From NCBI RefSeq assembly GCF_009931435.1, contig NZ_CP043414.1: a DNA stretch of 64,000 nucleotides, one strand, 5' to 3'. The translations under genes were made by a program, and so were the position numbers. The notes below the pieces were generated by a model. It did not search any database. It was not told where the DNA came from and saw only the letters and a program-made list of their open reading frames with translations. Below are positions 56,275-58,485 of this stretch, one piece after another. The stretch comes from Escherichia coli (lineage in GTDB: Bacteria > Pseudomonadota > Gammaproteobacteria > Enterobacterales > Enterobacteriaceae). Each line of letters starts with the position of its first letter. Positions within the stretch are counted from its first letter, which is position 1.

Positions 56275-56460
56275 ATGCTGATTCTGACTCGTCGAGTTGG
56301 TGAGACCCTCATGATTGGGGATGAGGTCACCGTGACAGTTTTAGGGGTAAAGGGCAACCAGGTACGTATTGGCGTAAATGCCCCGAAGGAAGTTTCTGTT
56401 CACCGTGAAGAGATCTACCAGCGTATCCAGGCTGAAAAATCCCAGCAGTCCAGTTACTAA
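56275..56460 (+). CDS. csrA: carbon storage regulator CsrA
   Basis: 61-aa [51 protein letters not shown]…. Confidence 0.98.
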
Positions 56461-56684
56461 TCTTTCCGCGTCTCATCTTTATCGGTGAGACGCACCCTCA
56501 AAATTCCTCCTTCACTCCATTGTTTTTTCGCTTTACTCCCGTTCATTCAACTTTAGTCTCCATTTTTTGCATTACTGCTATCTGTCAGACCTCCGTTTTT
56601 CTGTTGATAAAACACTCTTTTTGACGTTTTTACAGACTAATTGAGTGTGAATTGTGCAAACGATAAAAGTGTGGGAAAAATTGT

Positions 56685-56712
56685 TTGACTTATAAGTCTC
56701 AGAAAGTAATAT
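56685..56712 (+). promoter_or_regulatory. sigma70 promoter of the serV-arg tRNA operon
   Basis: TTGACT-N16-TAATAT followed by GC-rich discriminator gcgcc, about 60 bp upstream of tRNA-Ser. Confidence 0.6.
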
Positions 56713-56774
56713 GTGCGCCACGCAGCGACGATGAGCGATAAACAAGTTCTTCGAAGCACTCGTAAGAGGCGTGT

Positions 56775-56867
56775 GGTGAGGTGGCCGAGAGGCTGAAGGC
56801 GCTCCCCTGCTAAGGGAGTATGCGGTCAAAAGCTGCATCCGGGGTTCGAATCCCCGCCTCACCGCCA
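56775..56867 (+). tRNA. serV: tRNA-Ser (anticodon GCU)
   Basis: 93-nt sequence ggtgaggtggccgagaggctgaaggcgctcccctgctaagggag…cgcctcaccgcca with long variable arm, anticodon loop cuGCUaa, encoded CCA. Confidence 0.95.
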
Positions 56868-56870
56868 TTT

Positions 56871-56947
56871 GCATCCGTAGCTCAGCTGGATAGAGTACTC
56901 GGCTACGAACCGAGCGGTCGGAGGTTCGAATCCTCCCGGATGCACCA
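56871..56947 (+). tRNA. argV: tRNA-Arg (anticodon ACG), copy 1
   Basis: 77-nt gcatccgtagctcagctggatagagtactcggctACGaaccgagcggtcggaggttcgaatcctcccggatgcacca. Confidence 0.95.
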
Positions 56948-57146
56948 TATTCTACGAAATCTTCAGCAATGAAGGTGTCGAAGAGGTGGCGGTACTAACC
57001 GCAAGCACCAGGGAGGATAACGTTGCTTTAGCAACGGCCCGAAGGGCGAGCCGTAAGGCGAGTAATCCTCCCGGATGCACCATCTCTTACTTGATACGGC
57101 TTTAGTAGCGGTATCAAAAAATCTGCAGTAAAGTAAGTTTCCCGAT

Positions 57147-57223
57147 GCATCCGTAGCTCAGCTGGATAGAGTACTCGGCTACGAACCGAGCGGTCGGAGG
57201 TTCGAATCCTCCCGGATGCACCA
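57147..57223 (+). tRNA. argY: tRNA-Arg (ACG), copy 2
   Basis: Identical 77-nt sequence. Confidence 0.95.
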
Positions 57224-57286
57224 TCTCTTACTTGATATGGCTTTAGTAGCGATATCAATATCAGCAGTAAAGTAAGTTCTCCCGAT

Positions 57287-57363
57287 GCATCCGTAGCTCA
57301 GCTGGATAGAGTACTCGGCTACGAACCGAGCGGTCGGAGGTTCGAATCCTCCCGGATGCACCA
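57287..57363 (+). tRNA. argZ: tRNA-Arg (ACG), copy 3
   Basis: Identical 77-nt sequence. Confidence 0.95.
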
Positions 57364-57561
57364 TATTCTCCGAAATCTTCAGCAATGAAGATATCGAAGA
57401 GGTAGCGGAATTAACCGCAGGCACCAGGAAGGATAACGTTGCTTTAGCAACGGCCCGAAGGGCGAGCCGCAAGGCGAGTAATCCTCCCGGATGCACCATC
57501 TCTTATTTGATATGGCTTTAGTAGCGGTATCAATATCAGCAGTAAAGTAATTTCTCCCGAT

Positions 57562-57638
57562 GCATCCGTAGCTCAGCTGGATAGAGTACTCGGCTACGAA
57601 CCGAGCGGTCGGAGGTTCGAATCCTCCCGGATGCACCA
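57562..57638 (+). tRNA. argQ: tRNA-Arg (ACG), copy 4
   Basis: Identical 77-nt sequence. Confidence 0.95.
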
Positions 57639-57918
57639 TATTCTCCGTAATCTTCAGCGATGATGGTATGGAAGAGGCGATGGTAATCACCGTCTGCTCC
57701 AGGGAGGATAACGTTGCGGCAGCAACGGCCCGAAGGGCGAACGCCAGTGAGTCATCCTCCCGGATGCACCATCTTCTGCAAAAAATCCCCTTCAAAAATA
57801 TTTCATTTCTAAATAACTATTTTATCCATTTCCTGAATATTCTTCTCCTTCGCCATCAGCGACAAAATCAAGCAATTACGCTAAAGTAGCGTCATATTTT
57901 TCGACTTGCGAGAAGACC

Positions 57919-58485
57919 ATGTACGAGCGTTATGCAGGTTTAATTTTTGATATGGATGGCACAATCCTGGATACGGAGCCTACGCACCGTAAAGCGTGGC
58001 GCGAAGTATTAGGGCACTACGGTCTTCAGTACGATGTTCAGGCGATGATTGCGCTTAATGGCTCGCCCACGTGGCGCATTGCTCAGGCGATTATTGAACT
58101 GAATCAGGCCGATCTCGACCCGCATGCGCTGGCGCGTGAAAAAACAGAAGCAGTCAGAAGCATGTTACTCGATAGCGTCGAACCACTCCCCCTTGTTGAA
58201 GTGGTGAAAAGCTGGCACGGACGTCGACCAATGGCTGTAGGAACGGGGAGTGAAAGCGCCATCGCTGAGGCACTGCTAACGCACCTGGGATTACGCCGTT
58301 ATTTTGACGCCGTCGTTGCTGCCGATCACGTCAAACATCATAAACCTGCGCCAGACACATTTTTATTGTGCGCGCAGCGTATGGGCGTGCAACCAACGCA
58401 GTGTGTGGTCTTTGAAGATGCCGATTTCGGTATTCAGGCGGCCCGTGCTGCAGGCATGGACGCTGTGGATGTTCGCTTGCTGTGA
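57919..58485 (+). CDS. yqaB: HAD-family sugar phosphatase (fructose-1-phosphate phosphatase)
   Basis: 188-aa ORF with HAD motif I FDMDGTILDT. Confidence 0.9.
   Translation: MYERYAGLIFDMDGTILDTEPTHRKAWREVLGHYGLQYDVQAMIALNGSPTWRIAQAIIELNQADLDPHALAREKTEAVRSMLLDSVEPLPLVEVVKSWHGRRPMAVGTGSESAIAEALLTHLGLRRYFDAVVAADHVKHHKPAPDTFLLCAQRMGVQPTQCVVFEDADFGIQAARAAGMDAVDVRLL

Follow-up and report, generated by a model that had tools for sequence, protein, structure and literature searches.

What are the long repeated segments that stand between and behind the tRNA-Arg genes of the serV-argVYZQ operon in Escherichia coli? The question was addressed for the operon carried by a 64,000-nt stretch of contig NZ_CP043414.1 (RefSeq assembly GCF_009931435.1), hereafter the window, where the operon is flanked by csrA and yqaB. 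An initial annotation of this DNA had described four identical 77-nt tRNA-Arg(ACG) genes and a module of approximately 135 bp present three times, the last copy with no tRNA behind it. ARAGORN, Rfam and sequence comparison agreed on the four identical genes, and the modules were found to measure 135, 135 and 133 nt (M1, M2 and M3; Table 1). In all three, the first base lies directly after a tRNA-Arg CCA, on the same (+) strand as the tRNAs. Each module is closed by an exact copy of the tRNA 3' end, which had been estimated at about 20 nt: the last 19 nt (AATCCTCCCGGATGCACCA) in M1 and M2, and the last 18 nt in M3. The copied tail corresponds to the 3' strand of the tRNA T-stem, the 3' strand of the acceptor stem and ACCA. 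The tail 18-mer occurred seven times in the window versus none in 100 shuffles.

Alignment of the spacers confirmed the similarity of the modules. M1 and M2 are 93% identical, while M3 is a divergent copy with 79-82% identity to the other two; the tandem-repeat periods reported by TRF were 140 and 275 nt. The two spacer types distinguished in the initial annotation both exist, but each long inter-tRNA gap (199 and 198 nt) is made up of a module and a short spacer, and the short spacer is present three times, with pairwise identities of 88-95%. The hairpins GTTGC-loop-GCAAC and GCCC-GAA-GGGC were found in M1, M2 and M3 as described, except that the first loop of M3 is GGCA and not TTTA.

The combination of these features identifies the modules, with close to certainty, as tRNA-linked repeats (TLRs) and specifically as raV, raZ and raQ, members of an already described family that the initial annotation had not recognised. 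According to Stenum et al. 2021 (PMC8144298), a TLR is recognised by a final 18-19 bp identical to the 3' end of the stable RNA (tRNA or rRNA) encoded upstream, and these repeats have no known function. As summarised in the same paper, the first TLRs to be noticed were those of tyrT (Egan & Landy 1978), and 22 of them were catalogued at ten K-12 loci (Rudd 1999). The three modules of the window lie in a stable-RNA operon, directly downstream of a stable-RNA gene and on its strand; they end in 19, 19 and 18 nt of the upstream tRNA, and they share their core with other TLRs, as seen in an alignment with tyrT and in Lys, Pro and Glu operons. In K-12, the gaps between the tRNA-Arg genes are 198, 62 and 198 nt, followed by a module-bearing 3' trailer (280 nt from the last tRNA-Arg to yqaB), and the modules occupy the same three positions as in the window. 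The supplementary strain table of PMC8144298 lists Δ(argY/Z/Q, raQ/Z/V) as part of a strain from which all 22 TLRs are deleted (TSS107). Since the positions match and this table names raQ/Z/V, M1, M2 and M3 were assigned as the orthologues of raV, raZ and raQ, an assignment made by position and strain table; in EcoGene the short-form TLRs carry these names. Operon, positions, lengths, strand and the 18-19-bp tail are all shared with K-12. No difference in kind was found; the window copies carry point substitutions and a 1-nt indel in a locus that is approximately 96% identical.

The modules are also short-form relatives of the RtT element (rttR) of tyrT-tyrV. At its gathering score of 45 bits, the Rfam model RtT (RF00391) gave no match in the modules, and it was found by E-value thresholds only. 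Full-model scores were 27.8 (M2), 27.9 (M3) and 30.2 bits (M1), and a truncated match of M1 to model positions 46-130 reached 33.8 bits. It was observed that the 3' half of RtT, comprising the core hairpins and the closing helix with the tRNA tail (85 positions, 46-130), is present in the modules with high posterior probabilities. Both elements have the core AACGTTGC-loop-GCAACG and RCCC-GRA-GGG followed by a variable hairpin, and in both the copied tail forms a closing helix with an upstream purine-rich strand ending in GGAU. In contrast, the tyr elements carry an insert of approximately 45 nt (GAGAAGCUUCGACC...GAGCG...CGAGAG) between GGAU and the core, which the arg modules lack. Because of this insert, a MAFFT alignment of arg and tyr modules (A1) misplaced the 5' strand of the closing helix, and it was used for the 3' core only. 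The 5' domain of the arg modules is also different and has no tpr-like reading frame, whereas the tyrT TLRs carry the annotated tpr frame. A 9-codon frame (ATGAAGGTGTCGAAGAGGTGGCGGTACTAA, 56970-56999) was noticed within the 5' hairpin of M1, but its stop is placed differently in M2 and M3 and other genera lack it; it is therefore unlikely to be coding. RefSeq/PGAP has no annotation in the three module intervals. Taken with the RtT scores below the gathering score, this makes short-form TLRs invisible to routine annotation.

The core pattern (AACGTTGC-loop-GCAACG plus RCCC-GRA-GGG) was scanned for in one genome per species. The scan returned 106 loci with 144 copies, nearly all in Enterobacterales, plus Gilliamella, Marinobacter and Aestuariibacter. 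The host was tRNA-Arg(ACG) for 53 copies, Lys(UUU) for 44, Pro(UGG) for 20, Pro(CGG) for 4 and Glu(UUC) for 3; one copy had Val(UAC) as nearest upstream tRNA, and for 19, among them some at contig edges, the fetched sequence showed no tRNA upstream. In the majority of copies, the final 18-19 nt exactly repeat the tail of their own host. The duplicated length is the same for Arg, Lys, Pro and Glu hosts, and the copied tail of the 5S rRNA TLRs is likewise 18-19 nt (PMC8144298).

Several of these loci have further peculiarities. The Pro and Glu TLRs open with a duplicate of the intrinsic terminator found behind the tRNA, and this terminator recurs after the TLR. Such dual-terminator loci, some of them tandem, were seen in Pantoea, Pseudescherichia, Gilliamella, Aestuariibacter and Citrobacter koseri (L015, L017, L018, L064 and L081); the rrnB TLR also lies between two terminators, T1 and T2 (PMC8144298). 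The arg operon of Pantoea ananatis (L065) carries a tandem pair of TLRs at both of its last two sites and five core copies in total. Among the arg operons of other genera, a sample selected for one or more core matches, most complete serV-arg operons have a TLR at the terminal site, and M3 represents the copy most widely conserved across Enterobacterales. Internal sites are all empty in Salmonella arizonae, Serratia and Yersinia ruckeri, and all occupied in Citrobacter sedlakii and Klebsiella oxytoca.

Folding of each module, which the initial annotation had proposed as a check, gave predicted energies of -60 kcal/mol for M1 (z = -5.6 versus shuffles), -53 for M2 (z = -5.0) and -52.2 for M3 (z = -2.9). 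The 3' 78 nt of the module are predicted to form a four-way junction, in which the copied tail (AUCCUCCC-GG-A-UGC) would pair with the upstream strand GCACC-A-GGGAGGAU. The resulting closing helix of approximately 13 bp has three small hairpins inside and leaves ACCA single-stranded.

This fold was evaluated on 46 distinct TLRs of Arg operons in many genera (alignment A2), from which RNAalifold recovered the four-way-junction domain. In A2, 83.4% of the cells are paired, versus 31-51% with the partners slid, and the covariation score was 0.184 versus 0.115 for shuffles, a value reached by none of 500 shuffles. The closing helix is 94.5% paired. Its column pair 67-131 is GC in 39 cases, AU in 4 and GU in 2, and both partners also change at pairs 68-130 and 72-127. 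These compensatory changes follow species differences in the tRNA tail, with GGGAAGAU paired to AUCUUCCU and AGGAGGAU to AUCCUCCU. Covariation is strong in the third hairpin, where pair 108-117 is CG in 22 sequences, GC in 22, AU in 1 and UA in 1, while pair 107-118 is GC in 35 and AU in 10. The presence of G-U pairs on the + strand points to an RNA rather than a DNA structure. Overall, the pattern of compensatory changes across Enterobacterales supports the predicted fold that contains the tail. A cross-host duplex matrix pointed in the same direction for four of six classes (Arg, Lys, Glu and Tyr), where the 5' strand fits the 3' end of its own host best.

The occupancy of the four sites that follow the tRNA-Arg genes was compared in eight E. 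coli loci picked across the BLAST ranking. In the window and in K-12, sites 1, 3 and 4 carry a module and site 2 is empty. In O26 RM8426, sites 1 and 3 are occupied; in CH458 and ABW_A19, sites 1 and 4; and in Ecol_224 all four, so that a TLR is also found at site 2. N32 has no module at any site. O157:H7 G5295 and 61_150228 have empty sites 1 and 2, a 39-nt remnant at site 3 and a module at site 4, and STEC435, with three tRNA genes, has modules at sites 1 and 3 of three. While module occupancy varies, the four tRNA-Arg genes are usually kept. The empty sites are precise: the tRNA CCA is followed at once by the sequence that normally follows the pseudo-CCA. The terminal module of ABW_A19 (L007) is a mosaic, with an M2-like 5' part, an M3-like 3' hairpin and one substitution in the core (GAAGAGC), which indicates exchange between module copies. 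The remnant (L009 859-960, O157:H7 G5295; L008 660-761) consists of the 5' hairpin only, without core or pseudo 3' end, and is followed by the short spacer; the deletion at this place did not use the 19-bp repeats.

The junctions were then counted in 5,426 complete E. coli genomes with short junction queries, for which E-value cut-offs reject partial alignments. These queries were preferred to BLAST spans because the repeated pieces are split in such spans and make the architecture unreliable; they do not separate sites 2 and 3. Site 1 was empty in 1,712 genomes. Site 4 was empty in 481 and occupied in 4,653, and at least one internal module-to-spacer junction was present in 3,847, with one to five per genome. 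Genomes with up to five internal junctions imply arrays of more than four tRNA-Arg genes or tandem modules. The architecture of the window was found to be colinear over 2.1 kb in 2,158 genomes. All these figures are counts and not population frequencies, since the genome set is biased to clinical lineages. In E. coli, single sites thus gain and lose modules with precision, a site-by-site turnover of which no description was found in the searchable papers. The initial annotation had considered the pseudo 3' ends as possible recombination targets, and the precise presence and absence at four sites together with the mosaic modules support that idea. The existence of N32, devoid of any module, and of the laboratory strain without all 22 TLRs shows that the modules are dispensable.

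Taking structure and turnover together, the arg modules are probably processed, dispensable mimics of a tRNA end that are shuffled by recombination, although this combined picture is held with some reserve. The modules would be co-transcribed with the tRNAs in a polycistronic unit. In the predicted structure, the closing helix and the free ACCA would imitate the coaxial acceptor/T-arm helix of a tRNA, and enzymes acting on tRNA 3' ends would therefore free the module cleanly. Release could take place by RNase E cleavage just after the CCA followed by exonuclease trimming, while RNase P cleavage at the 5' edge of the helix (near 57005 in M1) might yield an RNA of approximately 78 nt. The 3' end of the rrnB TLR RNA (RrB) has been mapped 3 nt after the repeat, and recognition of the repeat by RNase E has been suggested (PMC8144298). 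The proposal of the initial annotation that the pseudo 3' ends may serve as RNase substrates is accordingly plausible. The freed RNA would have no essential role. Gene conversion and unequal exchange, acting between tRNA genes that are identical and short spacers that are similar, may copy and remove modules; this is the simplest route because the 77-bp tRNA genes and the spacers with 88-95% identity flank the modules with homologous sequence. A module at the terminal site could be lost by deletion between the 19-bp direct repeats.

A number of points weigh against this picture. Transcription, cleavage sites and RNA stability of the three modules are all inferred, and no transcript data for the raV, raZ and raQ modules were found in the literature searched. 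The distance from a CCA to the RNase E consensus RN↓WUU varies: it is 1 nt solely in those cases where a module comes next, but +18 nt for both pseudo-CCAs and for the real CCA of copy 2, which are all followed by a short spacer, and no consensus occurs after M3. This result is inconsistent and was not used as evidence. The RtT scores of 27.8-33.8 bits are lower than the gathering score, and in both Pro classes the 5' strand and tail match better in a non-cognate combination. The invariance of the two central hairpins is silent on selection because these hairpins were the search pattern. Recombination within the array does not explain the spread of the core to the operons of other tRNAs, and a conserved structure sits uneasily with complete dispensability.

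Several other explanations of the modules were considered. The initial annotation had suggested repeated duplication or replacement of tRNA 5' halves, so that the modules would be decayed partial duplicates of tRNA-Arg with the 5' portion replaced or mutated beyond recognition. The last 18-19 nt are indeed identical to the tRNA, and the 3' domain, with 78 nt and a four-way junction, is approximately of tRNA size. However, when the module body was compared with the first 58 nt of tRNA-Arg, 148-218 of 1000 shuffles scored as well, neither ARAGORN nor the Rfam tRNA model matched any module, and the body is homologous to that of TLRs behind Tyr, Lys, Pro and Glu tRNAs, each with the 3' end of its own host. 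An origin by decay is thus highly improbable and the suggestion was abandoned; the null tRNA models and the similarity within the shuffle range also speak against an identity of the modules as tRNA genes or pseudogenes. The presence of the same core behind unrelated tRNAs in many genera would suit selfish or once-mobile elements, or remnants of integration into tRNA 3' ends, with the 19-bp repeats as target-site or att duplications. A body of approximately 115 bp stands between exact 18-19-bp direct repeats, the empty sites are precise, and the duplicated length is constant at 18-19 nt for Arg, Lys, Pro and Glu hosts and, in the literature, for 5S rRNA. Such an origin is nevertheless quite unlikely. 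Genes for an integrase, a transposase or any other protein are absent and would not fit into so short a body, a single integrase would not serve six different attachment sequences, and the TLR copies are confined to the transcribed strand of stable-RNA operons, with none elsewhere in the window; turnover within the array is fully explained by the flanking homology of tRNA genes and spacers. A remnant of an integrative element was rejected as a candidate: the repeats are there, but the 115-nt body is free of element genes and occurs with six host tails.

The modules could instead be neutral spacer DNA that rides on the tandem array and folds incidentally. They can be dispensed with both in natural strains and in the laboratory, and their frequencies differ widely between sites, which neutrality would accommodate. 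Still, the closing helix and the third hairpin stay paired across genera through compensatory changes, the tail has kept its identity with the tRNA despite 7-21% divergence of the body, and the terminal module is kept in most of the Enterobacterales operons examined, so that neutrality is rather unlikely. The conserved, covarying structure would also fit regulatory RNAs or sponges that are freed from the tRNA precursor and bind Hfq or CsrA or titrate small RNAs. RrA, RrB and RrF, the TLRs of rrnA, rrnB and rrnD, belong to the same family, with a repeat equal to the last 18 nt of the host RNA and proposed to direct RNase E processing; they differ in having 5S rRNA as host and in their placement between two terminators. 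These RNAs are processed and short-lived, bind Hfq and CsrA in vitro and, like 3'ETS-leuZ, have been proposed to act as regulatory RNAs or sponges (PMC8144298). As cited in that paper, 3'ETS-leuZ (glyW-cysT-leuZ) is likewise a non-tRNA precursor segment freed by processing and has a demonstrated function in sponging small RNAs. It lacks a TLR core and a copied tRNA tail, and no target is known for the arg modules. RtT RNAs were detected and differentially expressed in Klebsiella RNA-seq (PMC4147364), and csrA (approximately 56300-56500) lies immediately upstream of the arg TLR operon. In contrast to the CsrA-binding RrA, RrB and RrF, all 19 tRNA-operon TLRs, including those of arg, received a probability below 0.01 from InvenireSRNA, a predictor of CsrB/C-type RNAs (PMC8144298), and the adjacency of csrA is for this reason probably a coincidence. 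The GGA motifs of the arg modules fall within the closing helix of the predicted fold and not in loops, many natural strains lack the module at one to all four sites, and the sole functional claim for rtT RNA was retracted. A regulatory role is therefore unlikely, with a small chance of being correct.

It is also conceivable, if doubtful, that the arg TLRs are anything but inert spacers and represent actively turning-over, structure-selected mimics of the acceptor/T-arm, either decoys and competitors for factors that act on tRNA 3' ends or selfish RNA-structured cassettes. As decoys they might engage RNase P, RNase E, CCA-repair or trimming enzymes, toxins that target tRNA ends, or integrases. 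As cassettes they would move from one stable-RNA operon to another through a mechanism by which exactly the last 18-19 nt of the host are copied every time. If this were true, the presence/absence polymorphism in E. coli would represent ongoing gain and loss under selection.

The remaining features of the locus are included in Table 1. The first gene of the operon is tRNA-Ser(GCU), and a promoter-like site, with a G+C-rich stretch after the -10 hexamer, lies 63 nt upstream of it. This site is probably the operon promoter, as judged from the sequence; the scan gave a single match in the region versus about 1.6 expected by chance, which is weak evidence. A hairpin with a T-run located 27 nt before the yqaB start codon (57919) could possibly mark the end of the tRNA transcript, the number of terminator-like hits being equal to the chance expectation and likewise weak evidence. 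ARAGORN also called an antisense tRNA-Arg(tcg) at 56891-56962 (-), overlapping tRNA-Arg copy 1 and the first 15 nt of M1; it was discarded as most likely an artefact, the reverse complement of the real tRNA. The locus at 56300-58400 showed 99.3-99.4% identity to just two of the 5,426 complete genomes (R32_14_1F, from goat, and 2020CK-00188) and approximately 95.7-96% to K-12 and most other strains, so the window probably comes from an uncommon E. coli lineage.

Table 1. Features of the serV-argVYZQ operon in the window; fold elements, promoter and terminator are predictions.
Feature	Coordinates	Length (nt)	Strand	Basis
Promoter-like site (TTGACT, 16-nt spacer, TATAAT-like TAATAT)	56685..56712		+	consensus scan
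tRNA-Ser(GCU), serV orthologue, at K-12 serV position	56775-56867		+	ARAGORN, Rfam
tRNA-Arg(ACG) copy 1, argV orthologue	56871-56947	77	+	ARAGORN, Rfam; K-12 layout
TLR module M1 (K-12 raV orthologue)	56948-57082	135	+	sequence, fold, Rfam RtT, covariation
M1 5' hairpin domain	56951-56984		+	predicted fold
M1 small hairpin	56989-57002		+	predicted fold
M1 closing-helix 5' strand, GCACCAGGGAGGAT	57005-57018		+	predicted fold
M1 three enclosed hairpins	57021-57036, 57037-57047, 57050-57059		+	predicted fold
M1 pseudo tRNA 3' end	57064-57082	19	+	sequence identity
Short spacer S1, ordinary inter-tRNA spacer	57083-57146	64	+	directly after CCA in module-less genomes
tRNA-Arg(ACG) copy 2, argY orthologue	57147-57223	77	+	ARAGORN, Rfam
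Short spacer S2 (site 2, without TLR in the window)	57224-57286	63	+	sequence comparison
tRNA-Arg(ACG) copy 3, argZ orthologue	57287-57363	77	+	ARAGORN, Rfam
TLR module M2 (K-12 raZ orthologue)	57364-57498	135	+	
M2 pseudo tRNA 3' end	57480-57498	19	+	
Short spacer S3	57499-57561	63	+	sequence comparison
tRNA-Arg(ACG) copy 4, argQ orthologue	57562-57638	77	+	ARAGORN, Rfam
TLR module M3 (K-12 raQ orthologue), in 3' trailer	57639-57771	133	+	
M3 pseudo tRNA 3' end	57754-57771	18	+	
Terminator-like hairpin and T-run	57878..57892		+	consensus scan

As the modules are part of a family of E. coli repeats already known and catalogued, the finding adds nothing new in kind. What is added, as useful leads, is the covarying fold that contains the tail in a helix and the site-by-site presence and absence among 5,426 genomes. 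The residual value of these results lies in the fact that TLRs have had no accepted function since 1978. The structural hypothesis, with the copied tail in a covarying helix and a free ACCA, could make the question of what TLRs do more testable. In addition, E. coli strains at every grade of occupancy, from four sites to none, constitute natural knock-outs that could be compared for tRNA-Arg maturation and fitness.

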